Assembly: GCA_963772865.1 (NCBI GenBank) | Contig: CAVYZA010000034.1 | Span: 291,550 to 355,549, forward strand | Length of the DNA: 64,000 bases | Source: an uncultured beta proteobacterium | Lineage (GTDB): Bacteria; Pseudomonadota; Gammaproteobacteria; Burkholderiales; SHXO01 | Direction of reading: 5' to 3' | In this document: piece by piece, positions 20,501-54,038 of the stretch | How positions within the stretch are numbered: the first letter of the stretch is position 1 | How the letters are laid out: each line of letters starts with the position of its first letter | The notes under the pieces: generated by a model | Database searches by the model: none | What the model was told of the DNA's origin: nothing | The model's input: only the letters and a program-made list of their open reading frames with translations | Position numbers and translations under genes: made by a program

Positions 20501-23500
20501 CGGCGGAGTGTCGGAGTTCATGATGTAGCTCGCCGTGCCACCCAGGTTGCCGGCGAGCAGATCGTTGATCTGCATCAGCGTGCCGGTCAAGGTCACGCTA
20601 TTGCTCCCCGAGCCGCCCACCACCACACCAGTGGTCCCTGCGTTGACCGTGAGGGTTCCCGAGACGACCGACAAGGTGGCCATGAGACTGGCCGATCCCG
20701 CGTCCAAGTCGCCGATCGACAACCCAGTGCCCTGCAGTGCCAGGCTCACCTGCTCGCTCGCGCTGTAGCTGCCCGCCGCAATGGTTGCGCTGGGCGCGTC
20801 GTTGACGGCGCTCACGTTGATATTCATCGTCCGCGGCGTCGGGTCGGTGTCGACACCGCCGTTAGCGGTGCCCCCATCGTCTCGCACCTGGAACGTGAAC
20901 GCCGCATAGCCCGTGCCGTTCGTGTCCGCCGCTGGAGTGAACTTGAGGTTGCCGGCCGTGATACTGCCTGCGGTGATGTCTTGTCCTGCGGAGACTGCGA
21001 CCCCCGACAGCGTAAGAGTGCCTGCCCCGGGCAGCGCTGTGATGCGTACGACGTCCAGGCTATTCGCGGGACTGTCACTTAAATCAGCGAACCCGAAGTC
21101 CGCGACCGTAAACGTATACGCGACGTCCTCGCTGATCGTCACTGTGTTGCTGTTGCCTGCGGGCGGGTCGTTGACCGGATTGATGGTCAGTGTGACTGTT
21201 GCGATGTTCGAGTCGTTGCTGCCATCATTTGCTAAGTACGTGAAGCTATCTGCACCCGCATAGTCCGCCACCGGCGTATAGGTGAAGGTGCCGTCTGGAT
21301 TCAGGGTGAAGGCCGCAGCGTGTGTGGGGCCGCTCACCAGCAGCGCGGACAACGGTTGTCCGCTTGGGCTCGAATCGTTGGCGAGGACCCCGCTTGATCC
21401 TGTTGCCGTCTGGGCGGCACCAACGCTGAGGAACGCGTTGGTCATGGTCAGGTACTCGGCCTGAATCCACGCAGCGGAACGCGCGGCGATCGAAATGCGC
21501 GCCTCGTCCATGCCGCCGTGAAAGAACGAGCTACCACCGTCATCGTTCGATCCGATGGCTACGCTGTCTGAATTGGTGTTGGGAGTCGCGCTATTGAGAA
21601 AGTTGGCGATGCCCGAGGTGTTCGCGTCTTCTACCCCATCCAAGTAAATCCGGATGGCATTGGTAGAGAAATCGATCGTGGCGGCAATATAGTGCCAACC
21701 TGCTCCGAGAGGTGTATCGGTCGTGATAACCGTCGCTTTGTCTAGGTCATCGTCGGTCGAGCGTGCGACCACTTCGATGTTGTCGTTCGCGATCCGCAGT
21801 TGCGCGCGCGAATTGCCGGTCGGAATGCCGCCGTTGTCCCGGCTCGCCGCGATCACCGTTCCGTCAACAAGCGGATCGGTCGCCGTGTTGACCCACGCGG
21901 ACAGCGCGACGTAGCTGGTATTGTTTAGCAGCGGCCGATTCGTGCCCAGGTTGACGTAGTCGTCGGCACCGTCGAAGGCGAAGCCTCCTCCGATTATCCC
22001 CGTCGTGCCCGCGGCTCCATTCGTTGCGCTGCCTCCGAATGCGTTGGACGTGGAATCGCCGACGCTCGTGCCTGTGTCGGACATGTGATAGACAGCACGG
22101 AAGCCGTTGCCCGACCAGACTGCGGTCGGATCCGCTCCGGCGACTGCCGTCGCATTCCCGTAATACATCCAGATGGAATCCGAGCCGCTCGTATCGATCT
22201 GAGGCACCTTGACCCAGACATAAGAGTCGCCGGTTTCGTCCCATTTCTCGATCTCGTAGGCCAGCGGGGTCCCATCCGCGTCAAAGAAGCGCAGATCCTC
22301 ACCCGCGTCTCGCGTCTGCAGGTAATCGGTATTGCTGCTGTTGAGCGTCAAGAGCACGGGGAAATCTGACAGGTTCTGCGCGCCGGCAAACGCGTTGCCG
22401 GTAAACGTGATCTGTTTGCGCTCGCTCCATGCCGTATCCCACCAACCTATGTTGAGCGAACCGTCCTCGTCCAGGCTGTAGTTGTCTGCCGATGCAGTAG
22501 GAATGCTGGCGGCGTTAACAGTGATAGCGATGGAGTTGCCCTGCGATAGTGCGCCACCGGTCCCGGTGTTGCCGAGGTCGTTCGTGGTGATGCTGAGCGA
22601 AGCCGCACCGCTGAAACCGATCGTCGGGTCGAAAAACATGCCGTTCAGCGCGGCGTTGATATTGGCCACTGTGCCCGTAAACGTCATCGTGGCGTCGCCC
22701 GTGCCGTTACCAGTGCTAAATGTGAGGCCGGTGGTGCCCGCCAGGGTGAGTGTGCCGTTTGTCGCGGTCAGCGTGACCTGCACGGAGCTGGCGGCGGCAT
22801 CCACGTCCGCAATAGAGATGGCGTTGCCGTTGCCGCTCGAGAAAACGAGCGCCGTGTTCTGACCAGTGCCCTGCGCCGAGGGCACAGCGTTCACAGGCGC
22901 ATCGTTGACCGCGCTGATGTTGATGGTGGCGGTGTCCGATCCGGTCTTGGCGCCACCCGAGCCGTGTTGCCTCCGTCGTTGGCGAGCAGCGTGAGCGTAT
23001 CGCCGGCAGGCGGAGTGTCGGAATTGATGATGTAGCGTAGCGGTGCCGCCGAGGTTACCGGCCAGCAGGTTGTTGATCTGGGTCAGCGTCCCGGTCAGGG
23101 TCACGCTGTTGGTGCCCGAGCCCGATACCGCCGCACCGCTGGTGCCCGCGGTCACCGTGAGCGTGCCCGAAACCACCGAGAGCGTGGCCGTCACGCTGGC
23201 GCTGCCCGCATCCACGTCGGCGATCGACAAACCCGTCCCGTGCAAGGTCAGGCTGGTCTGCTCGGTCGCCGCATAGGTGGCCGGAGTGATCGTGGCCGTG
23301 GGCGCGTCGTTGACCGCGCTGATGTTGATGGTGGCGGTGTCCGATCCGGTCTTGGCGCCACCCGAGCCGGTGTTGCCGCCGTCGTTGGCGAGCAGCGTGA
23401 GCGTGTCGCTGGCAGGCGGAGTGTCGGAACTGATGATGTACGTAACCGTGCCGCTGAGGTTACCGGCCAGCAGGTTGTTGATCTGGGTCAGCGTCCCGGT

Positions 23501-23509
23501 CAGGGTCAC
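16358..23509 (-). CDS. Giant locus A, fragment 2 (2,383 codons)
   Basis: Continues the 135-aa repeat series. It contains a second DUF2341/LamG module (WWDTAWSERKQITF, DLRFFDADGTPLAYEIEKW, IWMYYGN), 8 more 135-aa repeats and the first 93-99-aa repeats. The last ~110 codons are out of frame (Arg/His-rich). Confidence 0.85.
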   Translation of the reverse strand: MTLTGTLTQINNLLAGNLSGTVTYIISSDTPPASDTLTLLANDGGNTGSGGAKTGSDTATINISAVNDAPTATITPATYAATEQTSLTLHGTGLSIADVDAGSASVTATLSVVSGTLTVTAGTSGAAVSGSGTNSVTLTGTLTQINNLLAGNLGGTATLHHQFRHSACRRYAHAARQRRRQHGSGGAKTGSDTATINISAVNDAPVNAVPSAQGTGQNTALVFSSGNGNAISIADVDAAASSVQVTLTATNGTLTLAGTTGLTFSTGNGTGDATMTFTGTVANINAALNGMFFDPTIGFSGAASLSITTNDLGNTGTGGALSQGNSIAITVNAASIPTASADNYSLDEDGSLNIGWWDTAWSERKQITFTGNAFAGAQNLSDFPVLLTLNSSNTDYLQTRDAGEDLRFFDADGTPLAYEIEKWDETGDSYVWVKVPQIDTSGSDSIWMYYGNATAVAGADPTAVWSGNGFRAVYHMSDTGTSVGDSTSNAFGGSATNGAAGTTGIIGGGFAFDGADDYVNLGTNRPLLNNTSYVALSAWVNTATDPLVDGTVIAASRDNGGIPTGNSRAQLRIANDNIEVVARSTDDDLDKATVITTDTPLGAGWHYIAATIDFSTNAIRIYLDGVEDANTSGIANFLNSATPNTNSDSVAIGSNDDGGSSFFHGGMDEARISIAARSAAWIQAEYLTMTNAFLSVGAAQTATGSSGVLANDSSPSGQPLSALLVSGPTHAAAFTLNPDGTFTYTPVADYAGADSFTYLANDGSNDSNIATVTLTINPVNDPPAGNSNTVTISEDVAYTFTVADFGFADLSDSPANSLDVVRITALPGAGTLTLSGVAVSAGQDITAGSITAGNLKFTPAADTNGTGYAAFTFQVRDDGGTANGGVDTDPTPRTMNINVSAVNDAPSATIAAGSYSASEQVSLALQGTGLSIGDLDAGSASLMATLSVVSGTLTVNAGTTGVVVGGSGSNSVTLTGTLMQINDLLAGNLGGTASYIMNSDTPPASDTLSLNVNDGGNTGSGGAQIGSASVAINIGAVNDAPTATITPASYAATEQVALVLHGTGLSITDPDAGGADITATLSVVSGALTVTAGTTGVTIGGSGTDSVTLTGTLVQINDLLAGNLGATATYIIGSDAPPATDTLTLGVNDGGNTGSGGAQTGSDSATINISAVNDPPTATITAGSYSATEQVSLALHGTGLSISDADAGPASLTATLSLVSGTLTVNAGTTGVVVGGSGGNTVTLTGTLVQINNLLAGNLGSTASYVINSDTPPASDTLTLSVSDGGNTGSGGAQSGSANVAINIGAVNDAPTATITPATYSAAEQTSLTLHGTGLSIADPDAGGADVTATLSVVSGALTVTAGTTGVTIGGSGTNSVTLTGTLAQINNLLAGNLGATAVYAISSDAPPATDTLTLSVDDAGNSGSGGAQSGSDAATINIAAVNDAPSATIAAGSYSASEQVSLALQGTGLSIGDLDAGSASLMATLSVVSGTLTVNAGTTGVVVGGSGSNSVTLTGTLMQINDLLAGNLGGTASYIMNSDTPPASDTLSLNVNDGGNTGSGGAQIGSASVAINIGAVNDAPTATITPASYAATEQVALVLHGTGLSITDPDAGGADITATLSVVSGALTVTAGTTGVTIGGSGTDSVTLTGTLVQINDLLAGNLGATAAYIMSSDAPATADTLTLSVNDGGNSGSGGALSGSDSATINISAVNDAPEATIGATSYVAAEQIPLVLSGTGLSIADVDAGTTSVTAMVSVVSGTLTATAGGTGVSIAGNGSNSITLTGTLTQINDLLVGAGGGALSYLINSDMPPASDTLTLSVNDGGNTGSGGAQSGSATATINIAAVNDTPSATIAAASYAATEQTSLALEGTGLSIADLDAGAGILTASLSVVSGTLNVSAGTTGVAVAGNGSGSITLTGTLAQINDLLAGNFAATASYVINSDTPPASDTLTLSVDDSGNTGSGGAQTASASVTIAITPVNDAPTGAAGIIGISIEDAVLTADTSGIGDPDGLGAVTYQWARSTDGGTTWNPILGATGSSYTLGDADVNAFIQMSLAYVDGQGNAESLSSPSLGPVSNVNDAPSGAVIVTGTVTEDQTLTADTSSIGDADGLGGFAYQWARSTDSGVTWNDITGETASTYVLGDADVGNLIQVSVSYTDGQGSAESLTSADVGPVANVNDAPTGVPTISGTVTEDQTLTANTAGIADADGLGAFSYQWLRNGAVIATATGSTYTLGDADVGTQISVQVSYTDGQGTPESRHLGADRGGGQRQRRAERACHRQRHSHGRSDPDRGHQRHRRCRRPGRASATSGCATRRTWTHRGRDGLHLHPGRCRRGHPDQRAGELHRRAGHCRERYLGADCGRWPTSTMPRRGCPPSAAR
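17556..20806. repeat. Coding tandem repeats, block II: 8 x 405 bp (135 aa), moderately diverged, with a 1,620-bp higher-order duplication
   Basis: VNDAP-encoding motifs occur every ~405 bp (17560, 17965, 18370, 18775, 19180, 19585, 19990, 20395, 20800). Region 18511-19188 is nearly identical to 20131-20808. Confidence 0.9.
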
Positions 23510-25745
23510 GCTGTTGGTGCCCGAGCCCGATACCGCCGCACCGCGTGGTGCCCGCGGTCACCGTGAGCGTGCCCGAGACCACCGAGAGCGTGGCCGTCAC
23601 GCTGGCGCTGCCCGCATCCACGTCGGCGATCGACAAGCCCGTGCCGTGCAAGGTCAGGCTGGTCTGCTCGGTCGCCGCATAGGTGGCCGGAGTGATCGTG
23701 GCCGTGGGCGCGTCGTTGACCGCGCTGATGTTGATGGTGGCGGTGTCCGATCCGGTCTTGGCGCCACCCGAGCCCGTGTTGCCTCCGTCGTTGGCGAGCA
23801 GCGTGAGCGTATCGCTGGCAGGCGGAGTGTCGGAGTTGATGATGTAGCTAGCCGTGCCGCTGAGGTTACCGGCCAGCAGGTTGTTGATCTGGGTGAGCGT
23901 CCCGGTCAGGGTCACGCTGTTGGTGCCCGAGCCCGATACCGCCGCACCGCTGGTGCCCGCGGTCACCGTGAGCGTGCCCGAAACCACCGAGAGCGTGGCC
24001 GTCACGCTGGCGCTGCCCGCATCCACGTCGGCGATCGACAAACCCGTCCCGTGCAAGGTCAAGCTGGTCTGCTCGGTCGCCGCATAGGTGGCCGGAGTGA
24101 TCGTGGCCGTGGGCGCGTCGTTGACCGCGCTGATGTTGATGGTGGCGGTGTCCGATCCGGTCTTGGCGCCACCCGAGCCCGTGTTGCCTCCGTCGTTGGC
24201 GAGCAGCGTGAGCGTATCGCTGGCAGGCGGAGTGTCGGAACTGATGATGTACGTAACCGTGCCGCTGAGGTTACCGGCCAGCAAGTTGTTGATCTGGGTC
24301 AGCGTCCCGGTCAGGGTCACGCTGTTGGTGCCCGAGCCCGATACCGCCGCACCGCTGGTGCCCGCGGTCACCGTGAGCGTGCCCGAAACCACCGAGAGCG
24401 TGGCCGTCACGCTGGCGCTGCCCGCATCCACGTCGGCGATCGACAAACCCGTCCCGTGCAAGGTCAAGCTGGTCTGCTCGGTCGCCGCATAGGTGGCCGG
24501 AGTGATCGTGGCCGTGGGCGCGTCGTTGACCGCGCTGATGTTGATGGTGGCGGTGTCCGATCCGGTCTTGGCGCCACCCGAGCCCGTGTTGCCTCCGTCG
24601 TTGGCGAGCAGCGTGAGCGTATCGCTGGCAGGCGGAGTGTCGGAACTGATGATGTACGTAACCGTGCCGCTGAGGTTACCGGCCAGCAGGTTGTTGATCT
24701 GGGTCAGCGTCCCGGTCAGGGTCACGCTGTTGGTGCCCGAGCCCGATACCGCCGCACCGCTGGTGCCCGCGGTCACCGTGAGCGTGCCCGAAACCACCGA
24801 GAGCGTGGCCGTCACGCTGGCGCTGCCCGCATCCACGTCGGCGATCGACAAACCCGTCCCGTGCAAGGTCAAGCTGGTCTGCTCGGTCGCCGCATAGGTG
24901 GCCGGAGTGATCGTGGCCGTGGGCGCGTCGTTGACCGCGCTGATGTTGATGGTGGCGGTGTCCGATCCGGTCTTGGCGCCACCCGAGCCCGTGTTGCCTC
25001 CGTCGTTGGCGAGCAGCGTGAGCGTATCGCTGGCAGGCGGAGTGTCGGAGCTGATGATGTAGCTAGCCGTGCCGCTCAGGTTACCGGCCAGCAGGTTGTT
25101 GATCTGGGTCAGCGTCCCGGTCAGGGTCACGCTGTTGGTGCCCGAGCCCGATACCGCCGCACCGCTGGTGCCCGCGGTCACCGTGAGCGTGCCCGAAACC
25201 ACCGAGAGCGTGGCCGTCACGCTGGCGCTGCCCGCATCCACGTCGGCGATCGACAAACCCGTCCCGTGCAAGGTCAAGCTGGTCTGCTCGGTCGCCGCAT
25301 AGGTGGCCGGAGTGATCGTGGCCGTGGGCGCGTCGTTGACCGCGCTGATGTTGATGGTGGCGGTGTCCGATCCGGTCTTGGCGCCACCCGAGCCGGTGTT
25401 GCCTCCGTCGTTGGCGAGCAGCGTGAGCGTATCGCTGGCAGGCGGTGTATTCGAGTTAATGACGTAGCTTGCCGTGGCGCTCAGGTTACCGGCCAGCAGG
25501 TTGTTGATCTGCGTGAGCGTGCCGGTCAGGGTCACGCTGTTGGTGCCCGAACCCGATACGGCCGCACCGGTGGTCCCCGCAGTCACTGTGAGCGTGCCGG
25601 AGACAACGGACAGGGTCGCTGTCACGCTGCCGCCGCCCGCGTCTACGTCGGCGATCGAAAGTCCGGTGCCATGCAGGGTCAGGCTGGCCTGCTCTGTGGC
25701 CGCGTAGCTGATTGGCGTGATCGTGGCGGTCGGTGCATCGTTGAC
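22896..25745. repeat. Coding tandem repeats, block I: 7 x 405 bp (135 aa), almost identical at nucleotide level
   Basis: The antisense ORFs 24088..24492 and 24493..24897 are each exactly 405 bp with near-identical translations. The unit is TATITPATYAATEQTSLTLHGTGLSIADVDAGSASVTATLSVVSGTLTVTAGTSGAAVSGSGTNSVTLTGTLTQINNLLAGNLSGT.SYI.SSDTPPASDTLTLLANDGGNTGSGGAKTGSDTATINISAVNDAP. Confidence 0.9.
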
Positions 25746-28700
25746 GGGATTGACCGTGATCGTGACCGTCGCGAGGTTGGAGTTGTTCGTGCCGTCGTTG
25801 GCCCGATAGGTAAAGGTGTCGGTGCCGCTGAAGTTGGCCGTCGGCGTATAGGTGAAGCCGCCATTGGCGTTGAGCGTGAACGAGGCTGCGTTCGAGGGGC
25901 CTCCGACCAACACAGCGGTGAGCGCGTCCCCGTTGGGATCGCTGTCGTTGCCAAGTACACCGATGCCTTGCGCGGCGCTGAACCCCACAAACGCATCTGT
26001 CATGGATAGGTACTGCGCCTTGATCCAGGCGGCAGAACGCACCTGGGTGGAGACGCGGGCTTCGTCGATGCTACCGTTGTAGTAGCCGTCGGTGCCGTTG
26101 GGCCAACCATTGGTCTTGTATCCGCCCAACCGCCAGTAGCCGTTGTAGTTCTCCGAGCTGGCGTTGGGCGAGGTGTCGACCAGCACGCCGTCGACGTACA
26201 GCGAGAGGGTATCGGTGCCGTCGTTGCGCACCCCTACGGCATAGTGCCAGGCGCCGTCGGCATAGTTGGTGGTCGAGTTGGCGACGTCCTCGCTGTCGGT
26301 CGGCTGGTAGTACGATCCGAAGTACAAACGGCCGTCCGTCCCGACGTAAAGGTGTCGATCCCAGTCCGGGCTGGCGGTGCCGGTCTGGTTGGTCTCGAAT
26401 CCGAGGATCTTCCTGCCGGCTGCCGAGCTCGTGCGGAACCACGCCTCGATGGTGTATTGCTGCGGGTTGGAGAACTGTGTCGTCGTGTACACCTGGGCGT
26501 TGGTGCCGTTGAAGTTCTGCCCGCTGGCTATCACCCCCGCCCCGTTGGTGGAGTTGCTGTTGATGCCATCGTTGGTTCCAGCCGAATCCTGCTCATCGGT
26601 GTTGAGGTGCCACACGCCGCTGAACCCGGCGTCCCAGACCGCAGTGGCATTCTGCGTGTCCGGCGCCGCGGCATTGCCGTAGTACATCCAGATGTAGTCG
26701 GAGCCGGATGACGCGTCGATCTGCGGAACGCTTACCCAGACGTACGATGTCCCGCTCTCGTTCCAGCTTTCGATCTCGTGCGCCAGAAGAGTCCCGTTGC
26801 TGTCAACGAAGCGCAGGTCCTGACCGGCGTTCTGCGTGAGCGCGTAGTTGATGCGCGTGCTGTCGAGCTCGACCAGCACCGCGAAGTTGGTCAGGTTCTC
26901 GGCCTGGCCGGAGTTGTCGAAGGTGAGCTGCTTGCGCTGGCTCCAGCTGGTGTTCCACCAGCTGGACGCTTGCGGGATCGTGAGCGTGCCCTCCTCGTTG
27001 ACGCTGTAGGCATCGTTGGTGGCCACGGGGGCCGTGCCCGCCACCGTGGCGTTCACGCCGAACTCCGAGGTGTTGTTGGAGCCGTCCGTGGCCGTTGCGG
27101 TAACGCGGTCGCCGAGCGCCAGGCCGCTCACGGTGAGCGACCCGCTGAAGTTGCCGCTGGCGTTGGCAGTCAGGAAGCCCAGGTAGACCTGGCCCTCGCC
27201 GTTCGTCCCCGCAGCGTCCGCGCTCTTGAAGAACTCGACCCGCGCCCCGGCGAAATCGGTATCGCCGGACGCAGTGCCGATGTATCCCGCCAGCGTGAGG
27301 GTCGTCCCGTTCAGGCTGGCCGTCTGGATCACGGGGAAGTCCATCAGCTGGTTGGGCTGCCCGGCCGTCTTCGCGCCATCGTTGGCGGTGACCCCGTTGT
27401 CCAGCAAGTCGATGCCCAGATCGCCGTTGGAGAAGATAGCGTTGCCCAGCACAGCGTTGCCGGTACCGGCGGTGGCGCTCAGCGCCACGCCGTCCAAGGC
27501 GTTGTACGCGATGGTGTTGCCGGCTCCGGCGCCCGTGCCTCCGATGGTGTTGTTCGCCGCCGCGTTGTCGATCCACACGCCCTGTCTGCTGTTGGCGATC
27601 GCGGCAGTACCCGCAGCATTGGTGCCGATCAGATTCCCCAGCACGACGTTGCCGGTCGTGCCGGAGCCGGTAATCCGCACGCCTTCTCCGTTGTTCCCGG
27701 ACATCACGTTGCCGGCGCCCGCCGCGGTGCCTCCGATCGTGTTATTGGTTGCGCTGCCGAAGATCGCCACACCCTGATTGGTGTTGCCAAGATCGACCGC
27801 GCCGGTCACGTCCAGACCGATGTAGTTGCCGAGCACCACGTTGCTCGAGGTGCCCGCGTTGCGGATCTGGATACCGTCGACGGTATTGGCTGAGATGATG
27901 TTGCGATCTGCAGCTGTGGTGCCCCCGATCGTGTTGTTGGTCGAACCGAGGATGATCGACACGCCGACCAGATTTCCGAGACCCACCGTGCCCGCCGCGC
28001 TGGTTCCCAGGAAGTTGCCCTTGATGACATTGTTCGACGAGGCGCTGATCAGGATGCCTTCCTGCGCGAAGCGATTGATGACCAGCCCCTTGATCGTGCT
28101 GCCCGAGCTGCCGGCCGCGAGCGTCAGGCCTGCCGAGGCACCGGCTCCAATACCGTTCAGCTCGACCACTGGTGTGCCGGCGAAGTCGGGCGCGCTGGTG
28201 CCATCGATGATCACGGCGTCAACGATGTTCGGCAACGCCGAGCTCAAGGCGATGGTGTGCGGTCCGGCACCCGCGATGTTGAAGTAGATTCGGTCGGGGC
28301 TGTTGGCGTTCGCATTGGCAGTATTGTTGGCGGCGAAGATCGCCTCCCGCAGCGAGATCTTGCCGTCCGTGCCTTTGTCCGACAGCAATTGGCTGATCGT
28401 GACCGTGCCCGACGCAAAGGACGAGTCGTAAGCGTTGCTGACCGTGTCGACCACCAAGGCGGTGGCGTAACGCTGAAAGAACACACCACTGCCGTCGCCG
28501 GTGCCGTTGCCCGCCCAAGCGACCACCGTCTGCCCGACAGAGTTCATAGCGACAGCAGGACTGAGTTGATCGCCCGCAGTGGTGCTGTTGACGCGCACTT
28601 CTCCGCCGTTGGCTGTGCCGTCGGCGTTGTACTCCTGTTTGTAGATGCCCCAGGTGCCGGCCGCATCCTGGTTTTGGCTGGCCCATACCACCATGAAGTT

Positions 28701-30341
28701 GCCATTGACATCTATCGCCACGGCCGGGTGCTGCTGTTCGCCGGCGGTGGTGCTGTTGACGCGGAACTCGCTGCCTTGTGCAACGCCGGAGGCGTTGTAG
28801 CGCTGCGCATAGATGCCGCTGCTGCTGGCGGCGTCCTGGCCGAAGCTTCTCCAGACCACCACGTAGTCACCATCGGGCGCCATGGCCACCGATGACCAGT
28901 CCTGGTCACCGCTGGTGGTGGTGTTTACGCGTACTTCGCCGCTCAGAGCAGCGCCTGCCGCGCTAAAGCGCCGCATCCATACGCCCGAGCCGGTGGCATC
29001 GGCGTTGGAGAAGGTGACGACGAAGTTGCCCGCCGCGTCCATCGCCACGCTGTCGGGCCACTGGTTGCCAGTGGTGGTGGTGTTGACGGCAATCTGTCCA
29101 CCCTGCGCAACACCGGAAGCGTTGTAGCGCTGAGCGTAGACACCTTCGAGGTCGCCATCTTGACCGGCGCTCGCCCAGACCACCACGAATGCACCACTGG
29201 CGTTCATGGCGATAGTCGGGTTGTCTTGAGCGTTGGCGGTAGTACTGTTTACTCGGAACTCCGAGCTCAGCGCAGTGCCCGCAGCATTGTAGCGGCGGGC
29301 ATAGATCCCCGTGCCACTGCCGTCCTGGTTGTTGCTCCGCCACGCCACCACGAAGTTGCCGCTGGCGTCCATCGCCACCGTGGGCGAATCCTGCGAGTCT
29401 GCAACCGTCTGGTTGACCCGCGTTTCGGCGCCTTGCGCCACACCGCTGGCGTTGTAACGCTGGAAGAACACGCCGTTCGTGTCACCGGTGCCTTCGCCGG
29501 TCCACACCGCCACGTAGTTGCCGTTCGCGTCCACCGCCACAACTCGCGGCGGGGCAAACGCGTTGGTGTCCTGAGCGCCCGTGGTGGTGGTGTTGACCTT
29601 GGTCTCGCCTCCCACCGCGACGCCCTGTAGAGTGGCGTTCCAATCCAGGACCACCGACTGGCTGAACACGATCGATGTGTCGATCTGTCCCGCGTGGAAC
29701 TCGAGATCCCAGTCGCCGCCGAGCTTGGCGTTGCCCGTCAGGTCGTCGCTTGCGGCGACGTCCGCGCCGGTCAGCCGGGCTAGTGCCTCGACCAGCGAGC
29801 GGCCGTTGTCGGTTTGCGCGACGTTGCAGCCATAGATCAGGATGTCGGCGTCGGCGGTGAGCGCCGCGCCCCAGCTCTTGATCTTCGCGCCGTTCTTGAG
29901 CAGGGAGTCGAAGTCCAGGCTGGTCTTGCCCAGCTGCACCGACCCGTCCGCGCCATGGGAGACGAGGTGGACGGCGCTGACGTCATCGCGGCCAGCCAGC
30001 GTCTGGGTGATCTGGGCGACGCCGTCCTTGCCGTCATCGAGCAGCACCACCTCGATGTCGCGCCCACTGCCCTGGGTGCGGATGTCTGCGATCAGCTTCT
30101 CGTAATCGGGCGTCGCCGTTTCCACGAATACGATCTCGTGGCGACTTGCCTGGACCTTCTGCGCGGAGGTCTGGTTGAACTCGCCGCTGGGGTCGACGGT
30201 GCGCTGCTCGGCCTGGACGTCTAAGCCGGTATCGGGCACGAGTGCCGGCGCGAAGTCGGCCGAGTACAAGATGCGCGGCTCGATCTCCTCGATCCGAGGC
30301 CCTCGCACTTGACGCTGCTGTCTTGCCGCTTTCCTGCTCAT
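23460..30341 (-). CDS. Giant locus A, fragment 1 (2,293 codons)
   Basis: Starts MSRKAARQQRQVRGPRIEEIEPRILYSADFAPA. The DUF4347-type block reads HEIVFVETATPDY...VHLVSHGADGSVQLG...ILIYGCNVAQ...GADVAASDDLTGNAKLGGDWDLE. About 8 repeats follow of the form E.RVN.TT.G.Q..P.VA....G.FVVVW. Next come ISLREAI plus NNTIGG-type beta-helix turns. The DUF2341/LamG region has WWNTSWSQRKQLTF, DLRFVDSNGTLLAHEIESW and IWMYYGN. The 135-aa repeats follow. Confidence 0.85.
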   Translation of the reverse strand: MSRKAARQQRQVRGPRIEEIEPRILYSADFAPALVPDTGLDVQAEQRTVDPSGEFNQTSAQKVQASRHEIVFVETATPDYEKLIADIRTQGSGRDIEVVLLDDGKDGVAQITQTLAGRDDVSAVHLVSHGADGSVQLGKTSLDFDSLLKNGAKIKSWGAALTADADILIYGCNVAQTDNGRSLVEALARLTGADVAASDDLTGNAKLGGDWDLEFHAGQIDTSIVFSQSVVLDWNATLQGVAVGGETKVNTTTTGAQDTNAFAPPRVVAVDANGNYVAVWTGEGTGDTNGVFFQRYNASGVAQGAETRVNQTVADSQDSPTVAMDASGNFVVAWRSNNQDGSGTGIYARRYNAAGTALSSEFRVNSTTANAQDNPTIAMNASGAFVVVWASAGQDGDLEGVYAQRYNASGVAQGGQIAVNTTTTGNQWPDSVAMDAAGNFVVTFSNADATGSGVWMRRFSAAGAALSGEVRVNTTTSGDQDWSSVAMAPDGDYVVVWRSFGQDAASSSGIYAQRYNASGVAQGSEFRVNSTTAGEQQHPAVAIDVNGNFMVVWASQNQDAAGTWGIYKQEYNADGTANGGEVRVNSTTAGDQLSPAVAMNSVGQTVVAWAGNGTGDGSGVFFQRYATALVVDTVSNAYDSSFASGTVTISQLLSDKGTDGKISLREAIFAANNTANANANSPDRIYFNIAGAGPHTIALSSALPNIVDAVIIDGTSAPDFAGTPVVELNGIGAGASAGLTLAAGSSGSTIKGLVINRFAQEGILISASSNNVIKGNFLGTSAAGTVGLGNLVGVSIILGSTNNTIGGTTAADRNIISANTVDGIQIRNAGTSSNVVLGNYIGLDVTGAVDLGNTNQGVAIFGSATNNTIGGTAAGAGNVMSGNNGEGVRITGSGTTGNVVLGNLIGTNAAGTAAIANSRQGVWIDNAAANNTIGGTGAGAGNTIAYNALDGVALSATAGTGNAVLGNAIFSNGDLGIDLLDNGVTANDGAKTAGQPNQLMDFPVIQTASLNGTTLTLAGYIGTASGDTDFAGARVEFFKSADAAGTNGEGQVYLGFLTANASGNFSGSLTVSGLALGDRVTATATDGSNNTSEFGVNATVAGTAPVATNDAYSVNEEGTLTIPQASSWWNTSWSQRKQLTFDNSGQAENLTNFAVLVELDSTRINYALTQNAGQDLRFVDSNGTLLAHEIESWNESGTSYVWVSVPQIDASSGSDYIWMYYGNAAAPDTQNATAVWDAGFSGVWHLNTDEQDSAGTNDGINSNSTNGAGVIASGQNFNGTNAQVYTTTQFSNPQQYTIEAWFRTSSAAGRKILGFETNQTGTASPDWDRHLYVGTDGRLYFGSYYQPTDSEDVANSTTNYADGAWHYAVGVRNDGTDTLSLYVDGVLVDTSPNASSENYNGYWRLGGYKTNGWPNGTDGYYNGSIDEARVSTQVRSAAWIKAQYLSMTDAFVGFSAAQGIGVLGNDSDPNGDALTAVLVGGPSNAASFTLNANGGFTYTPTANFSGTDTFTYRANDGTNNSNLATVTITVNPVNDAPTATITPISYAATEQASLTLHGTGLSIADVDAGGGSVTATLSVVSGTLTVTAGTTGAAVSGSGTNSVTLTGTLTQINNLLAGNLSATASYVINSNTPPASDTLTLLANDGGNTGSGGAKTGSDTATINISAVNDAPTATITPATYAATEQTSLTLHGTGLSIADVDAGSASVTATLSVVSGTLTVTAGTSGAAVSGSGTNSVTLTGTLTQINNLLAGNLSGTASYIISSDTPPASDTLTLLANDGGNTGSGGAKTGSDTATINISAVNDAPTATITPATYAATEQTSLTLHGTGLSIADVDAGSASVTATLSVVSGTLTVTAGTSGAAVSGSGTNSVTLTGTLTQINNLLAGNLSGTVTYIISSDTPPASDTLTLLANDGGNTGSGGAKTGSDTATINISAVNDAPTATITPATYAATEQTSLTLHGTGLSIADVDAGSASVTATLSVVSGTLTVTAGTSGAAVSGSGTNSVTLTGTLTQINNLLAGNLSGTVTYIISSDTPPASDTLTLLANDGGNTGSGGAKTGSDTATINISAVNDAPTATITPATYAATEQTSLTLHGTGLSIADVDAGSASVTATLSVVSGTLTVTAGTSGAAVSGSGTNSVTLTGTLTQINNLLAGNLSGTASYIINSDTPPASDTLTLLANDGGNTGSGGAKTGSDTATINISAVNDAPTATITPATYAATEQTSLTLHGTGLSIADVDAGSASVTATLSVVSGTLTVTAGTTRCGGIGLGHQQRDPDRDADPDQQPAGR

Positions 30342-30742
30342 CGCACACCCCAGTGTCTGCGCTCGCGCCGCTGCTGCGCGCTAGCCTTTGCGATCCTTCA
30401 CAATTCCTGACGGACACCGTCAGCCCGTCGTGCGGGTGCCCCGCAGCGACCGGCTAGTGACCGCGCTCCGGTTGACGATTCGCTCGGCCAAGCGCCGAGG
30501 ATTCAGGTCCTTGGCGTCCTGCGCGCGCGATTTGTCAACCGAGGCGGCGCGCCGTTGCTGCGCGCGCAGCCTACAAGTGCATAGCGTGCAAGGACTTTGC
30601 CTGCGAGGCCAAGCAGTTCACAAGGGGCGTAGCGTGCCATGCATGCGCGCGGCATCGGCGCGGCCGGGAGGGCGATATGTCGAGGCGATGTGCTGGTGCG
30701 GGTATGCGAGCGATGCGAGGGCGGGCTGACTAAAACTCCGGG

Positions 30743-30829
30743 CTAGCCATCCGGCTGATTCGAGTACAGGATGCCTGGCTCGATCTCCTCGACCACGGGG
30801 CGGCGTTTCCTTGCAGGCCCGGCCTTCAT
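30743..30829 (-). CDS. 28-codon mini-ORF encoding only the giant-protein leader motif (leader-only peptide or 5' gene remnant)
   Basis: Runs from the ATG at 30829 to the TAG at 30745..30743: MKAGPARKRRPVVEEIEPGILYSNQPDG. A possible SD (agaagg) lies ~9 nt upstream. It is too short for the ORF track. Confidence 0.4.
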   Translation of the reverse strand: MKAGPARKRRPVVEEIEPGILYSNQPDG

Positions 30830-31001
30830 CGTGAAGCCTTCTCTCGGAGCTTGCTACTATGTGTTGCGCCGGCCGAGGTTGACCTGATTTCACAGACTCC
30901 CTCGGCGAGCGGGGACGCGCGGGACGCACGTCGCACTGGCAACGATGCAGGGAGCCTGCCCAATGGCGAGCGTGTCTTCGCCTGCTCGCAGGAAATGAAG
31001 A

Positions 31002-31022
31002 AGGGCGGGTCAGACCCGCCCT
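31002..31022 (-). terminator. GC-rich hairpin, likely intrinsic terminator after the small HlyD-type gene
   Basis: GGGCGGG-tcaga-CCCGCCC at 31003..31021. It is followed on the minus strand by ttcttcatttcc and on the plus strand by tttgtctcc. Confidence 0.5.
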
Positions 31023-31214
31023 TTGTCTCCCGGCCGCACGGCGCCCGCAGCCGCGCGCTGGCCTCGATTACTTCGACGGCGCTGCGGCCACTGATGCCTT
31101 GGTCACCGGCTTGTGCGTCGGCTCTTCCGGGAGCGGTCTGCTCGCCGCGTCCTTCGAAGGTGGCGGCAACACCGGCTGCCGGCTTGCCGGCGGCATCCTT
31201 CACGGCCGGCGCGA

Positions 31215-32054
31215 CTACCCGGCGCCGGCTTGGCGGCCGTTGTCGGCGGTGGACATGCCCTCGAACTCGAGCTTGCAGCGCAGGCCCGGGGGCAGCGCGT
31301 TGTCCGGATTGGGCAGCTCGAGACGCACCCGGAAGCTGTTGCTCGCGGCATCGATGACGCGGTCCACGACGATGACATTGGCGGTGCGCACTTCGGCATC
31401 GACCATGTCTGGCTTGACCGTGGCGACCATGCCGGTCTTGATCTTGCTGAAGTAGCTGGACGGCACGATCACTTCGACACGCAGCGGGTCGATGGTCGCT
31501 ACCTTCACTAGCGCCTTCTCCTCGACCCGTTCGCCTTCGGACAGGTACTTCTCCACCACCACGCCGCTGAGTGGGCTGCGGATCGTGCGCTGGTTCATCT
31601 GCGCGTTCGCCAGCGCCAGCTCGTGCTTGGCCTGGCGCTGCGACTCGCGCGCCTGGCGCAGCCGCATCTCCGCGACTTCCGCTTCGGTGACGGCCTGATC
31701 CCGGATCTGCTGCGCGACGAAGTTCTTCTGATACAGGTCCTGAGTCCGCACGCGCTTCTTTTGCGCGAAGTCGTGATTGGACGCGGCAGCCTGCAATTCC
31801 GCGTAGGACTCGGCTCGCACTTTTGCTGAGGCTACTGCGGCACGCTCGACATCCTGATTGAGCAGGACCAGCGGTTGACCCTTCTTGACGAAGTCGCCGC
31901 GCTCCACCATCACCTGGTCGATCACGCCCACCACTTGAGCGCCGACCTCGGCTTCCTGGAAGGGTTGAATCAGACAACCCAGTGGCTCGGCGCGAACCAG
32001 GGCAGCGCCGCACAACACTGCGCCGGTCGCGCAGAGCATGATCAGTCGTGCCAT
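31215..32054 (-). CDS. Small HlyD/membrane-fusion-type periplasmic adaptor protein
   Basis: ORF 31215..32153. An internal ATG at 32054 gives the signal peptide MARLIMLCATGAVLCGAALVRA. It has a lipoyl-like hairpin (VERGDFVKKGQPLVLL ... IRSPLSGVVVEKYLSEGERV), a coiled-coil segment and a beta-barrel segment. Confidence 0.8.
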   Translation of the reverse strand: MARLIMLCATGAVLCGAALVRAEPLGCLIQPFQEAEVGAQVVGVIDQVMVERGDFVKKGQPLVLLNQDVERAAVASAKVRAESYAELQAAASNHDFAQKKRVRTQDLYQKNFVAQQIRDQAVTEAEVAEMRLRQARESQRQAKHELALANAQMNQRTIRSPLSGVVVEKYLSEGERVEEKALVKVATIDPLRVEVIVPSSYFSKIKTGMVATVKPDMVDAEVRTANVIVVDRVIDAASNSFRVRLELPNPDNALPPGLRCKLEFEGMSTADNGRQAGAG

Positions 32055-32209
32055 TGTCACTTTCCTTTGACGTTGCGGTTGCATGGTGTTTCTCATGCAC
32101 GTCACAATGCAAGGACCGGGCCGAGCTCGAGGCGCACGAGCTGGTGAGATCATCAGCTTGTCACGCTACGCGTGGGACCCGTCATCGGACGAATTCCCAT
32201 CACCCGGCA

Positions 32210-32401
32210 GGCTCCCACCACCCCGTCACGCTGCGCGTGCCACCCCTCCTCGGGGAGGCTCCCACCACCCCGTCACGCTGCGCGTGCCACCCCTCCTCGG
32301 GGAGGCTCCCACCACCCCGTCACGCTGCGCGTGCCACCCCTCCTCGGGGAGGCTCCCACCACCCCGTCACGCTGCGCGTGCCACCCCTCCTCCGGGAGGA
32401 G
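32210..32401. repeat. Intergenic 48-bp tandem repeat x4, followed by three GC-rich hairpins (to about 32470)
   Basis: The unit ggctcccaccaccccgtcacgctgcgcgtgccacccctcctcggggag starts at 32210, 32258, 32306 and 32354. Downstream hairpins are cccctcct/aggagggg, ccccgcctc/gaggcgggg and ggcgcgc/gcgcgcc. Confidence 0.9.
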
Positions 32402-32648
32402 GGGAGGATTGGTTTCTCCCCGCCTCTCACGAGGCGGGGTGGCGCGCACAGCGCGCCGGGGCGGTGTGGTGTGGCTTGGTTTTTAACAGCTGGACCGCGG
32501 GGCAAGAAGGACACGGTGGACACGGGGAAGATCGCGACCGCGGCCTGCACGGACACGCTTCGATCTCCAGTGCTGAGCGCTCGGCTTTTCTCGAGCGCCC
32601 GCTTTTCTGCCGTGTCCTCCGTGTTCTCCCTGCCTTGCGATCCGGGCG

Positions 32649-34475
32649 CTACGCTGCGGCCTGCGGCAAACTCCTGCGCACGAGCTGAGCGAACTGCTCC
32701 GCGGGCGCAGGACGGCTGCATAGGTAGCCTTGAAACTCGTTGCAGCGGCGCTGCGCCAGGAACTGCAGCTGCTCCTTGGTTTCGACGCCCTCCGCCACCA
32801 CGTTCATGCCGAGCTCGCGGCCCAGCACGAGGATGGCGCCGACGATCGCGCTGTTCTGCCGCTCCCCGGGGACGCCGCGCACGAAGGTGCGGTCGATCTT
32901 GAGCTCGTCGATGGGGAAGCGGCTCAGGTAGGTGAGCGACGAGTAGCCGGTGCCGAAGTCGTCCACCGACAGGCGCACCCCCATCTCCTTGATCTCGTGC
33001 AGCGTGGAGATGGTGTCTTCGCCGTCGTCCATCAGCATGCTCTCGGTCAGCTCCAGACACAGAAGCTGCGGCGGAATCCGGCTTCTCTCCACCGCGCCGC
33101 GCACCGCGTGCCAGATGGTGCCGCTCTTGAACTGCGGCACCGCCACGTTGACCGAGACCGACAGCTTGGGCAGTCCCTGCTGGTGCCACGCCGCCACCTG
33201 TGCACACGCCGTGCGCAGAACCCACTGGCCGATCTCGACGATGAGCCCGGTCTCCTCGGCGATGGGGATGAACTTGTCGGGTGACAGGATGCCGAGATCG
33301 GGATGCTTCCAGCGCAGCAGCGCCTCCGCACCGGTGATCCGTCGGGTAGCGATCTCGACCTTGGGCTGATAGAACAGCACGAATTCGCCCTGGTCGACCG
33401 CCTTGCGCATCTGCCCTTCCAGCGTCATGCGCTCGGTGGCATGCGCGTTCATCTCGTTCGAGAAGAACGTGTAGGTCTTGCGCCCGCGCTGCTTGGACTG
33501 ATACATGGCGACTTCGGCGTTTTTGAGCAGCGTGTCGGCATCCTCGCCATCCCCAGGCGACACGGCGATGCCGATGCTCGCGCTCATCCGCAGCTTGTGG
33601 CCGTCCACGTCGAACGGCTCGGACAGCGCGTTCTGGACGCGCCGCGCCATGGCGGTGGCATCGTCCACCTTGGTCAAGTTGTGCAGATCGGGCAGCAGCG
33701 CCGCGAAGCCGTTGCCGCCGATGCGGGAAAACCCTACAGGCGCTTCACGCCCGGTCGCATGCGACGGCTTGAACGAGGCGAACACGGTTTCCAGGATCTT
33801 GGCAACGCCGGCCAACAGGTGGTCGCCGACGCGATGACCCAGGGAGTCGTTCACCTGCTTGAAGCGGTCCAGGTCGATGTGCAGCAAGCTGCAGGCGCGC
33901 GACGAGGTGGCAGCGCTGCGGGCGAGCGCAGATTCGACTTCGACGCGGAACTTCTTGCGGTTGGGCAGGCCGGTCAACGGGTCGGAGTCCACCAGGCGGT
34001 CCTGGTAGGCTTTGAACGCGAGCGCGTTGCGCAGGCGCAGGCGCAGCTCGCTCGGGTCTACCGGCTTGGTCAGCAGATCGGTGGCCCCCAGCTCCAGCGC
34101 TTTCAGCTTGGCGGTCGGATCGCTCTCCGCGGTCAGTATGATCACCGGCGTATAGCGCAGCTCCTCGTGCCCGCGCACTTCCGCCAGGATGTCGAAGCCC
34201 GACACCTCCGGCATCATCAGGTCCAGGAGCAGAATGTCCGGGCGATGCTGCACGAACAGTCCCATCGCCTCCTTGGGCTGGCTGGTGGTGATGAAGCTCA
34301 CGTAGCCCGCCTCTTCCAGGTAGGTCTGTACCACCTCCAGCATCAACGGATCGTCGTCCACCATCATCACGGTGGAGGTCCGCAGCGATGTGAAGGCCGT
34401 CCGGGTGCCGGCCGTGGAGGCCGGGGAGCCGAGCTGGGCGGCCACTCTGGTCGGGATGCTCTCTGCGCTGTTCAT
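32649..34475 (-). CDS. Response regulator REC + degenerate GGDEF (GGNGF) + EAL c-di-GMP phosphodiesterase
   Basis: The REC domain reads VMMVDDDPLMLEVV...ILLLDLMMPEVSGFDIL...TKP. The GGDEF position reads RIGGNGFAALL. The EAL motifs are intact: GAEALLRW, ELTES, DDFGTGYSSL, KIDRTFV, EGVET, QGYL. Confidence 0.9.
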   Translation of the reverse strand: MNSAESIPTRVAAQLGSPASTAGTRTAFTSLRTSTVMMVDDDPLMLEVVQTYLEEAGYVSFITTSQPKEAMGLFVQHRPDILLLDLMMPEVSGFDILAEVRGHEELRYTPVIILTAESDPTAKLKALELGATDLLTKPVDPSELRLRLRNALAFKAYQDRLVDSDPLTGLPNRKKFRVEVESALARSAATSSRACSLLHIDLDRFKQVNDSLGHRVGDHLLAGVAKILETVFASFKPSHATGREAPVGFSRIGGNGFAALLPDLHNLTKVDDATAMARRVQNALSEPFDVDGHKLRMSASIGIAVSPGDGEDADTLLKNAEVAMYQSKQRGRKTYTFFSNEMNAHATERMTLEGQMRKAVDQGEFVLFYQPKVEIATRRITGAEALLRWKHPDLGILSPDKFIPIAEETGLIVEIGQWVLRTACAQVAAWHQQGLPKLSVSVNVAVPQFKSGTIWHAVRGAVERSRIPPQLLCLELTESMLMDDGEDTISTLHEIKEMGVRLSVDDFGTGYSSLTYLSRFPIDELKIDRTFVRGVPGERQNSAIVGAILVLGRELGMNVVAEGVETKEQLQFLAQRRCNEFQGYLCSRPAPAEQFAQLVRRSLPQAAA

Positions 34476-34491
34476 GTGTGGTGTTCCAGGC

Positions 34492-36989
<2,498 letters not shown>

Positions 36990-36993
<4 letters not shown>

Positions 36994-51902: not shown

Positions 51903-52030
51903 GGGAGAGGGCTGGGGTGAGGGTGAACTGCGCGCGACGCAGCCCCCTCTCCCTACCCTCTCCCGCGAGGGGAGAGGGACCTTTCTGTCTGGCCCTCACC
52001 CTACCCTCTCCCGCAAGCGGGAGAGGGACC
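51903..52030. repeat. REP-like intergenic palindromic elements (three related copies)
   Basis: ccctaccctctcccgcgaggggagagggacc and ccctaccctctcccgcaagcgggagagggacc are direct copies with internal 7-9-bp hairpins. gggagagggctggggtgagggtg is present in inverted orientation. Confidence 0.7.
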
Positions 52031-52055
52031 TTTCCGTTCTTTGCCGAAGCCGCGG

Positions 52056-54038
52056 CTATTCGCCGCGGCCGGCAAAGGACAGGCGGGCTTCGCTGTTGCG
52101 GTCCTGCTTGAGGAGCAGCTTGCGCTGTGCACGATGGCGGCGCTCCTCCTGCCGCTGCGGGAGGCGCGCGAGGAACGCCCCGAACCGCGCGGGCACCAGG
52201 CGGCGCGCGCCAGCCAGCGCGATCGCCGTGCTGCGCAAGGGCGCCGGCAGGGAGCGGGCGAGCAGCCCGTCCTGCAGGCTGAGCACCGTCTCGACGCTGC
52301 CCGGATCGCCCTGGCGAGCGGCGCGGCCGTGCAGCTGCCGGTCGATGCGCGGGGAGCTGTTGTGCTGGCAGCAGATCACGTGCAGGCCGCCACGCTCGGC
52401 CACGCCCGGCGCCAGCGGGATGTCGGTACCGCGGCCGGCCATGTTGGTGGTGACGGTGACGCGGCCGGCCTCGCCGGCGCGCGCGACCATCGCGGCTTCC
52501 TCGCTGTCCTGGCGCGCGTTGAGCACCTGATGCTCGATGCATGCCGCCGCGAACCGGATGCTGAGCTGATCGCTGTCGGCGACCGAATCCGTGCCGATGA
52601 GCACCGGCCGCCGCGCCTGCTGCAGCTCGCGCACGCGCTCGACGACCGCCTGCCACTTGTCCTCGCCGGTGACGAACACACGCATGCCCAGATTGCGGCG
52701 CTGCGACGGTCTTGCGCAGCGGCACGCGCTGCACGCGCAGGCCGTACACGCTCTCGAGCTCCGCCCGAGCTTCGGTGAGGGTCCCGCTCATTCCGCACAA
52801 TCGCAGATAGCGCGGGAAGAAGCGCTGATAGGTGATCTGCGCGATGGTTTCCATCTCGCCACTGGGCGGGCAGCCTTCTTTTTCTTCCAGCAGTTGCTGC
52901 AGTCCGCGCGACCACACCCGGCCCGGCGCCACACGCCCGGTGGTCTGGTCGATCATCAGGATCTTGCGATCGCGCACCAGGTAGTGCTGATCGCGGAACA
53001 GCAGATGATGGGCCACCAGCGCCGAGACCGACGATCTCGTCGCGGTGGCGGCGGTCCTGCCAAAGCCCGCCCATGCCCTTGGCCCGCTCGACCAGGAGCG
53101 TGCGTCCGGCGCCCGTCAGCTCGGCCTGCTGAGTCGAGGGATCGAGACGAAAATCGCGGCCCGGAACGAGGTGCAAAGCGATGCGCAACGCTTCCTGGAC
53201 ATAGGCCTGCTGCTGCGGGTTCACGCGCGGTTGCGACAGGATGAGCGGGGTGCGCGCTTCGTCGATCAGGATGCTGTCTGCCTCGTCTACCAATGCCATC
53301 CACAACCCGCGCAGCAGCAGCCCGCTCGACTCGGCCTGACCGGTTTCGAGGTGACGCACGCGGTCGTGCAGCTCGCTGGGCAGGTGTCGCCGCACCAGAC
53401 GGTCGCGCAGATAGTCGAAGGTCAGCTCCTTGGCGGTACAGTAGGCGATGTCGGCGCCGTAGGCAGCACGGCGTTGAGCCTGATCCAGCGGGCGCGTCAC
53501 CGCGCCCACGGTCAGCCCCAGCAGGCGATAGACCGGGCCGAGGTGGGCTGCGTCGCGATCCACCAGGTAGTCGTTGGAGGTGACGACGTGTACCGGCGTG
53601 CCGGCCAGTGCCGCAGTGGCTGCCGCGACCGCGGCGGCCAGGGTCTTCCCCTCGCCGGTGGCCATTTCCGCCAGACGGTTGCCGAGCATGATGCGTGCAG
53701 CGATGAGCTGAGTGTGAAACTGCTGCATGCCCAGCGCTCGCGAGGTCGCCTCGCGCACCAGCGCGAAGGCTGCCGCCATTGCCGGGTCGGTGAAGCCCTC
53801 GGCGCCGAGGTTGGCACGCACCTCCCGTACGCGCGCCGCAAAGGCAGATGCGGACAGTCCGCGCGCGTCCTTGGAATGCGTGTCTACCGCGTCGAGGAAC
53901 TGTTGCTGGCGGCGTTGGCCGAGCGCGCGCGGCAGCTCCCAACCCGAGTAGGGTCGCGCAGCGTGGTCGCCTGTCGTGGCTGCGCTCCGGATAGGGACCC
54001 AGCGCCGTCGCGCGGCTGGACAGGACGGCCGCTCGCAT
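52056..54038 (-). pseudogene. SecA-family ATPase paralogue (~660 codons, short form), interrupted by at least two 1-nt frame changes
   Basis: SecA motifs are spread over three frames: MATGEGKTL and LVDEADSILIDEARTPLI (ORF 52376..53821); HHLLFRDQHYLVRDRKILMIDQTTGRV (ORF 51868..53016); TNMAGRGTDI and RIDRQLHGRAARQGDPG (ORF 52056..52685). The shifts are near 53028 (gtcGgtctcg) and near 52712. The N-terminal start is unresolved (53821 GTG, or further upstream to 54038). Confidence 0.8.

Follow-up and report, generated by a model that had tools for sequence, protein, structure and literature searches.

The 28-codon open reading frame (mini-ORF) that lies between the MFP/adaptor gene and giant gene A is, with a probability that we put at about 0.82, the ancestral 5′ end of giant A, now orphaned, and not the remainder of a third giant gene. 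Relatives in which the giant still begins with this sequence, a discrete breakpoint directly after the leader codons and an inserted segment resembling the upstream region and start used at the same locus in other relatives all bear on this reading. Coordinates refer to the window, which is the whole stretch of 64 000 nucleotides of an uncultured beta proteobacterium that was analysed; locus numbers beginning with L denote related loci and those beginning with X denote contigs from other metagenomes.

A short reading frame with the leader of the giant proteins

The mini-ORF runs from 30829 to 30743 on the minus strand (ATG AAG GCC ... GGC TAG; 28 codons and a stop) and encodes MKAGPARKRRPVVEEIEPGILYSNQPDG*, as it had been read in a preliminary description of this DNA. 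It begins 385 nt after the stop codon of the MFP gene (31215), and its own stop lies 401 nt before the ATG of giant A (30341), in agreement with the distance of about 400 bp given earlier. The preliminary description had treated a lack of translation signals as an argument against the mini-ORF; an SD-like GAGAAGG is present 7 nt 5′ of the ATG. The reading frame is not that of giant A, since the two leaders are 500 nt apart (500 mod 3 = 2), and stop codons intervene.

The leaders of both giants are recognized by the LEPR-XLL model (NF012209), with scores of 19.6 bits for giant A and 17.9 bits for giant B (curated cut-off 17 bits), and DUF4347 comes next in both. The N-terminus of giant A is MSRKAARQQRQVRGPRIEEIEPRILYSADF and that of giant B, which has its ATG at 51726, is MERRAQPRRRPLVEEIEPRILYSADF. 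The mini-ORF peptide gave no match to the LEPR-XLL model at E ≤ 1, and a search of the 28 residues against the Pfam and NCBIfam profiles also returned none; the arginine of the (L/I)EPR motif is absent from it, the window reading EPGILYS. In the searchable literature LEPR-XLL and DUF4347 are mentioned in annotations only, with no characterization.

The likeness of the mini-ORF to the leaders of both giants, as claimed earlier, is clear at the DNA level within the window: 84% over 44 nt with the 5′ end of giant B (E = 1.7e-7) and 91% over 32 nt with that of giant A. The leader motif occurs only three times in the six frames of the window. Two of these copies correspond to 32-nt direct repeats identified by the repeat search, which are 91% identical and have a start-to-start spacing of exactly 500 nt (Table 1). 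The preliminary description had proposed to follow the homology beyond the stop codon by alignment with the 5′ regions of the giants; homology to both of them ends straight after the codons for ...ILYS (TAC TCG, Tyr-Ser).

It should be noted that each of the two giants consists of two ORFs that overlap and differ in frame (23460-23509; 49360-49615) and that the SecA-like gene of the window is broken into three ORFs (two frameshifts; 52700-53030). The ENA contigs of the relatives L081-L083 and L085 are fragmented likewise. The frame breaks in the long genes of the window are likely to be long-read indel errors, the alternative being real pseudogenization.

Table 1. Coordinates of the features discussed, in the window or in the related locus named.
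Feature	Sequence	Coordinates	Strand	Remarks
Mini-ORF	Window	30743..30829	-	Probably the old type-1 start of giant A, orphaned
Leader-coding repeat, copy 1 (in the mini-ORF)	Window	30761..30792	-	Repeat family D1, BLAST; encodes ..VEEIEPGILYS
Leader-coding repeat, copy 2 (in working giant A)	Window	30261..30292	-	Repeat search, BLAST; encodes ..IEEIEPRILYS
Inserted segment, 468 nt	Window	30293..30760	-	Gap in the alignment with L081-L083
Inverted repeat TTGACAAATCG ... CGAATCGTCAA	Window	30464..30546	-	Pair I2; 23-nt arms, 78% complementary
Type-1 sigma54-like box GGCAGGCTCCCTGCA	Window	30946..30960	-	Pattern match; 176 nt before the leader motif of the mini-ORF
Type-2 sigma54-like box GGCAAAGTCCTTGCA	Window	30587..30601	-	Within the insert; the ATG of giant A follows after 246 nt
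Intrinsic-terminator-like hairpin after the MFP gene	Window	31001..31023	-	Kept in relatives
MFP/periplasmic adaptor gene	Window	31215..32153	-	TIGR01730 at 1.4e-42, HlyD_D23
Giant A, first ORF	Window	23460..30341	-	LEPR-XLL motif, DUF4347, cadherin-like repeats; rest of the gene, to 16358, in another frame
Orphan ORF	L132	2473-2598	+	41 aa, MKKGSRRSKSRLVFEQLEPQVLFSADPLFAPVASHMPQGHT*; after SecA-like and MFP genes; giant start 2915
Orphan ORF	L147	2273-2680	+	135 aa; giant start about 2707

Colinearity with syntenic relatives

No near-identical genome is present in the species-representative set, in which the best match to the N-terminus of giant A has 57% identity. In this set the gene order SecA-like, MFP, LEPR-XLL giant is widespread, and the giant usually begins soon after the MFP gene (the gap is 24 nt in L003). 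Relatives of the locus were found by a search with the MFP protein, after which their contigs were fetched and the intergenic region was compared by BLAST and MAFFT. The syntenic relatives L081, L082, L083, L084, L086 and L088-L090 have MFP identities of 82-93% (91-93% at the amino-acid level for the orthologs in L081-L084) and share the gene order RR-GGDEF-EAL, MFP, terminator hairpin, giant.

The stretch 31394..30761 of the window, which takes in the 3′ end of the MFP gene, the terminator, the upstream block and the first 23 codons of the mini-ORF, is colinear with L082 8661-9311 (77%) and L083 8655-9290 (83%). Colinearity breaks off at a discrete point, 30761/30760, and is found again between 30292..29901 and L082 9280-9673 or L083 9259-9652, so that both leader copies of the window map to one leader per relative (for example L082 9280-9311). 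These two colinear blocks on either side of extra DNA therefore define a 500-nt insertion in the window, bounded by the 32-nt leader copies. Up to the breakpoint, 30829-30761 is colinear with the functional N-terminal coding DNA of L081-L083 and 86-88% identical to it, the block 30962-30906 is 89-93% identical to L082/L083, and the 3′ coding DNA of the MFP gene is 77-83% identical.

In L081, L082, L083 and L086 the post-MFP giant begins MKAG[PSA]ARKRR.VVEEIEPRILYSADFAP; the start in these relatives is ATGAAAGCCGGGCCTGCAAGGAAACGCCG..., i.e. MKAGPARKRRAVVEEIEPRILYSADFAPG in L081, with MKAGSARKRRP.. (L082), MKAGSVKKRRP.. (L083) and MKAGAARKRRA.. (L086) as the equivalents. This start (MKAG.ARKRR.VVEEIEPRILYS) runs directly into a body orthologous to giant A. 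The giants of the relatives thus start like the mini-ORF, which would therefore be the start of giant A, orthologous to theirs and cut after ...ILYS. L081-84, L086 and L088-90 each have exactly one leader, fused to the giant. As for the conservation of the mini-ORF in relatives, which the preliminary description had proposed to check, no stand-alone leader ORF was found at this locus in the close relatives, and the relatives compared do not have two tandem giants at the post-MFP position. The mini-ORF accordingly has what is expected of a gene remnant, namely colinearity with intact 5′ ends up to the breakpoint and no separate gene in relatives; neither the position, the length nor the key residues of a uORF are conserved among them.

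The inserted segment and its type-2 upstream region

The part of the insert at about 30610-30298 corresponds to an upstream region, 5′ UTR and new start (MSRKAARQQRQVRGPR) of a second type, found in L084, L091 and L109; we refer to it as type 2, and to the form in L081-L083 as type 1. Local alignment of this part with the upstream region of L084 gave a score of 103, compared with 32.8 ± 4.9 for shuffled sequences, and the equivalent regions of L091 and L109 could be aligned with the insert as well. The homology to L084 became visible only by this local alignment with shuffled controls, as BLAST with the insert as query returned no more than marginal matches in the window or in any of the loci; an exact 22-mer from the insert had no match among the JGI metagenome contigs. 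The type-2 giants of L084, L091 and L109 start with MSKKVRKDKRQARRP.., MKPKTKKQPRRP.. and MTKKAKKQKRQSRRP.., respectively, and resemble the MSRKAARQQRQVRGPR of the window. Three blocks are conserved in the type-2 regions: a GGCA(A/G)AGTCCTTGCA box, a TTGACA...TGTCAA inverted repeat and the surroundings of the start codon.

The inverted repeat is located in the type-2 5′ UTR/operator region, downstream of the type-2 promoter-like box, and TTGACA and TGTCAA are invariant columns in the alignment of the four sequences (window, L084, L091 and L109). The form common to these four is TTGACA(N4-5)..(about 40-55 nt)..TGTCAA. Such an element may form a hairpin in the 5′ UTR or serve as an operator.

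For the initial ~150 nt of the insert (30760-30611) no similarity emerged (z ≤ 2.4) to any of the sequences tested, namely type-1 and type-2 intergenic DNA, the post-leader coding DNA of giants A and B, and the upstream region of giant B. The insert and the type-1 upstream region are dissimilar (local score 36, compared with a mean of 34.7 for shuffled sequences), and we therefore reject the idea that the window simply duplicated its own upstream region in tandem. In-place decay of the coding sequence that once followed the remnant is unsupported, 30760-30611 being unlike the post-leader DNA of the giants. The preliminary description had expected decayed homology downstream of a simple gene remnant; no likeness to the coding DNA that follows the leader in the giants is seen there, since what adjoins the remnant is an alternative promoter region that was inserted. 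The mini-ORF itself is made up of 23 ancestral codons (MKAGPARKRRPVVEEIEPGILYS) followed by five codons and a stop from the inserted DNA.

Variants in environmental metagenomes

Variants of the locus were taken from Logan contigs that represent independent metagenomes of soil, sediment and fresh water; they are few and of low depth (2-5×), and the evidence from them is qualitative. The junction between remnant and insert is spanned by contigs X3, X4, X5, X7, X9, X11 and X13, with 91-99% identity to the window. Short contigs from other public metagenomes reproduce both the mini-ORF and this junction at ~98-99% identity. X8 and X15 carry the uninterrupted type-1 gene, in which ...ILYS is followed by ADFAPGLAPD or ADFAPALADA. 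None of the 16 runs examined contained a joint at which the two leader repeats had been fused with loss of 500 nt.

Among the composite variants, X3 and X4 have I16N inside the motif (EENEP) together with G28A, and X5 has G28A. X7 has lost the start codon (ATG to ATA) and is without 62 nt (30699-30760), which alters the tail of the ORF. This gap, in a contig ~91% identical to the window, lies directly after the leader of the remnant and may mark the original junction, at 30698, or a later deletion. In X9 the stop codon is changed (TAG to CAG) and the ORF extended, and EPRILYS is retained; as X9 keeps EPR, the R19G change of the window arose after the truncation. X2, a contig that ends at 30789 and may be of either form, has also lost its start (ATG to ACG). 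The start, stop, length and motif of the mini-ORF thus vary among near-identical genomes, a pattern that suggests, qualitatively, a neutral remnant. Purifying selection on the integrity of the mini-ORF is, in the same qualitative sense, not apparent among the close variants, and going by these changes the peptide is not maintained by selection.

Promoter-like boxes and transcription

The sigma54 -24/-12 consensus is TGGCAC-N5-TTGCW, with GG at -24 and GC at -12. Each of the two upstream regions contains a box (Table 1) that has the GG and GC elements and the spacing of this consensus in a pattern test, the type-2 box being 317 nt upstream of the working leader. The pattern GGCA-N6-YTGCA occurs four times in the window, where 1.85 matches are expected, a count that is not significant by itself; two of the four lie in the 873-nt spacer between the MFP gene and giant A, on the gene strand. 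In related loci the box is found 155-182 nt before the leader when the upstream region is of type 1 (L081-83, L086, L088-90 and L095) and ~280 nt before it when it is of type 2 (L084, L091 and L109), and 12 related loci have kept it at fixed distances. A scan for sigma70 promoters returned 0 sites. We infer that both candidate promoters are of the sigma54 kind. A further, perfect GGCA-N6-TTGCA box is present at 58434-58448 (-), 75 nt upstream of a gene for a GAF-HlyD-like protein (56428-58359).

No terminator is predicted between the remnant (30743) and giant A (30341), and read-through from the old promoter toward giant A may take place. Rfam, searched in E-value mode with 30100-31300, gave no riboswitch or sRNA family, and its sub-threshold matches cluster on the terminator hairpin of the MFP gene. 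Three metatranscriptomes yielded no reads. A single contig, X25, comes from a run guessed to be RNA, although whether the run is RNA or DNA is uncertain; it covers 30343-30596, extending from the type-2 box toward the ATG of giant A and stopping 2 nt short of it. The high conservation of the remnant and of the block upstream of it would fit either a recent event or an old promoter that is still in use.

Origin of the composite start

In the proposed course of events, the ancestral gene after the MFP gene would have begun MKAGPARKRRPVVEEIEPRILYSADFAP..., behind its own type-1 upstream region. A 500-nt unit would then have been placed immediately after the ...ILYS codons, consisting of ~150 nt of unattributed DNA, the type-2 upstream region, a 5′ UTR, a start codon, another basic N-terminus and a second leader copy; the type-2 unit would be the one that relatives carry at the same locus. 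The new leader copy would have been joined in frame to the unchanged gene body, providing what is now the working start of giant A, and the old start would read five codons into the insert before meeting a stop, which would give the 28-codon ORF. As the remnant retains an SD-like sequence, an ATG and a well-conserved upstream block, it is perhaps still transcribed, and ribosomes might even translate it, by accident, as a uORF of a long transcript that runs into giant A.

Single-leader genes of type 1 are found in lineages at 82-92% MFP identity and those of type 2 at 74-93%, and the composite form only in contigs at least 91% identical to the window in DNA sequence. On grounds of parsimony we take the composite to be derived, and favour insertion in the lineage of the window over deletion elsewhere; that the composite was ancestral and was lost by deletion on several occasions is conceivable. 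Two copies of the 32 nt that are best conserved in the gene family form the exact limits of the insert, and the conserved leader DNA may therefore have served as a homology anchor on one side of the insert, with an illegitimate join on the other.

Alternative explanations

The preliminary description had proposed that the mini-ORF could be the 5′ remnant of a third giant gene. That it is a remnant holds; a separate giant between the MFP gene and giant A, nearly all of which was deleted to leave the first 23 codons, seems improbable to us. The remnant leader is nearer to that of giant B (44 nt at 84%) than to the present one of giant A (32 nt at 91%), an RRRP.VEEIEP context links the leaders of the remnant and giant B, and the first 150 nt after the remnant are unexplained, yet in L081-L083 and L086 the MKAG start continues into the ortholog of giant A at the same post-MFP position. 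No relative with tandem giants is seen here, and several independent and precise deletions would be needed. An artefact or chimera of assembly may be given virtually no weight: the SecA-like gene and both giants are frameshifted, as in error-prone long-read assemblies, but at least seven other public runs, from different studies, span the junction at 91-99% identity. These independent contigs exclude an artefact.

The other proposal had been a free leader peptide acting as a decoy or regulator. Such a functional leader-only peptide or uORF, tuning the expression of giant A or competing for the LEPR-recognizing machinery (the SecA-like ATPase and MFP), would profit from the SD-like sequence and ATG that are kept, from the conserved sigma54-like box upstream, from the lack of a predicted terminator before giant A and from the independent recurrence of orphan leaders in L132 and L147, in the first of which the only box lies upstream of the orphan copy. 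We nevertheless consider it quite improbable, the stand-alone ORF being absent in all of the close relatives, and its start (X7), its stop (X9) and its motif (R to G, I to N) being lost among near-identical variants. The peptide also falls below the LEPR-XLL model, and a nascent peptide of 28 residues barely emerges from the ribosomal tunnel before termination. The reading of the mini-ORF as the cut 5′ end of giant A is thus the one that we retain.

We may wonder at this stage what the orphan leaders of other loci represent. Among 170 loci, orphan copies were found only in L132 and L147, which belong to unrelated lineages. The orphan ORF of L132 scores 30.5 bits with NF012209; its leader, with R changed to Q inside the motif, lies 501 nt before the working leader, and the sole sigma54-like box of this locus precedes the orphan copy by the usual distance. 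In L147 the orphan is a diverged duplicate of the first ~80 codons of the giant, with IMPS for IMLS (L to P) and a leader-to-leader spacing of 455 nt. Together, they hint at something recurrent. Short regex matches in L012, L015, L033, L037 and L067 were discarded, as they are as many as chance expects for the loose pattern. Orphan leaders could conceivably be retained as translated uORFs on the transcript from the old promoter, or the leader repeats could form a recombinational switch; we regard both readings as a long shot, with a very low probability. Were the uORF reading true, expression of the giant would be coupled to the state of a dedicated SecA-like/MFP export machinery; were the switch reading true, recombination between the leader repeats would delete the 500-nt cassette and restore an in-frame gene driven by the type-1 promoter and start. 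In either case the orphans of L132 and L147 would reflect selection and not accident.

Genes and repeats around the locus

The true start of the MFP gene is probably internal, at about 32054. A truncated SecA paralog is encoded at 52056-54038 (-) in the window, and in many loci such a gene lies directly upstream of the MFP gene and/or of the LEPR-XLL/DUF4347 giant. The same arrangement is present in L001-L004, L006, L014, L015, L020, L026, L038, L042, L063 and L132; many of the loci with the paralog are proteobacterial and some are planctomycete. In L003 the paralog has ~666 residues with SecA_DEAD, PP_bind and P-loop domains, and it scores below the SecA and SecA2 equivalog cut-offs. From this gene order, the SecA paralog with the MFP and giant genes looks like a dedicated, undescribed export module.

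Two kinds of repeat are found nearby. A 47-nt tandem repeat (32209-32399; 4.1 copies, 99% identical) lies between the RR-GGDEF-EAL and MFP genes, with an inverted partial copy at 32389-32407, and a REP-like palindromic element of ~48 nt, GGGAGAGGG...CCCTCTCCC, is present in two copies at 51945-52037, between the SecA-like gene and giant B. Cadherin and beta-helix proteins are encoded between giants A and B. The surroundings (32649-36993 and 54141-58359) encode signalling and export proteins: a hybrid histidine kinase, the RR-GGDEF-EAL protein and two more HlyD-like proteins, one of them with a GAF domain. The embedding of the locus among signalling and export genes suggests c-di-GMP-linked control of the giant surface proteins.

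Comparison with known systems

The mini-ORF should be annotated neither as a gene nor as a leader peptide. It probably marks a recent swap of the control region and start of a gene for a giant, probably secreted, surface protein, and is a small and concrete case of the rewiring of a giant adhesin-like gene by recombination. Two interchangeable cassettes, each an upstream region plus a start, occur at one locus among close relatives, with the leader DNA at the boundary of the exchange. The surrounding module, which comprises the SecA-like ATPase, the MFP, the LEPR-XLL/DUF4347 giant, the sigma54-like promoters and the c-di-GMP genes and is essentially uncharacterized, is of greater interest than the mini-ORF itself.

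Three known systems can be set beside the mini-ORF. With the LEPR-XLL domain of giant repetitive proteins (NF012209) it shares a basic stretch followed by (I/L)EEIEP.ILYS, as in giants A and B. However, it stands alone with 28 residues, lacks the arginine of the motif, does not match the model and is not on a giant protein, whereas in L081-83 and L086 the sequence orthologous to it forms part of the giant. In the secM-secA system, secM is a regulatory uORF of about 170 residues with a secretion signal and an arrest motif, upstream of secA. The mini-ORF likewise is short, has a secretion-type N-terminus and precedes a secretion-related gene, with which it is possibly co-transcribed, but it is not conserved, has no arrest motif, encodes 28 residues compared with ~170 and lies 400 nt from the downstream start. 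The closest likeness is with 5′ gene fragments left by the replacement of a promoter and start. Like these, the mini-ORF is colinear with the 5′ ends of orthologs up to a sharp breakpoint, has a premature stop from foreign DNA, is absent in relatives and has boundaries that decay among variants. It differs from them in two ways: its break coincides exactly with the end of a short, highly conserved leader stretch, which is repeated at the far end of the insert, and the DNA that came in is an allele-like regulatory cassette, which other lineages have at this locus. With these two peculiarities, the mini-ORF is best filed under a known kind of thing, a 5′ gene fragment from the replacement of a promoter-plus-start cassette.
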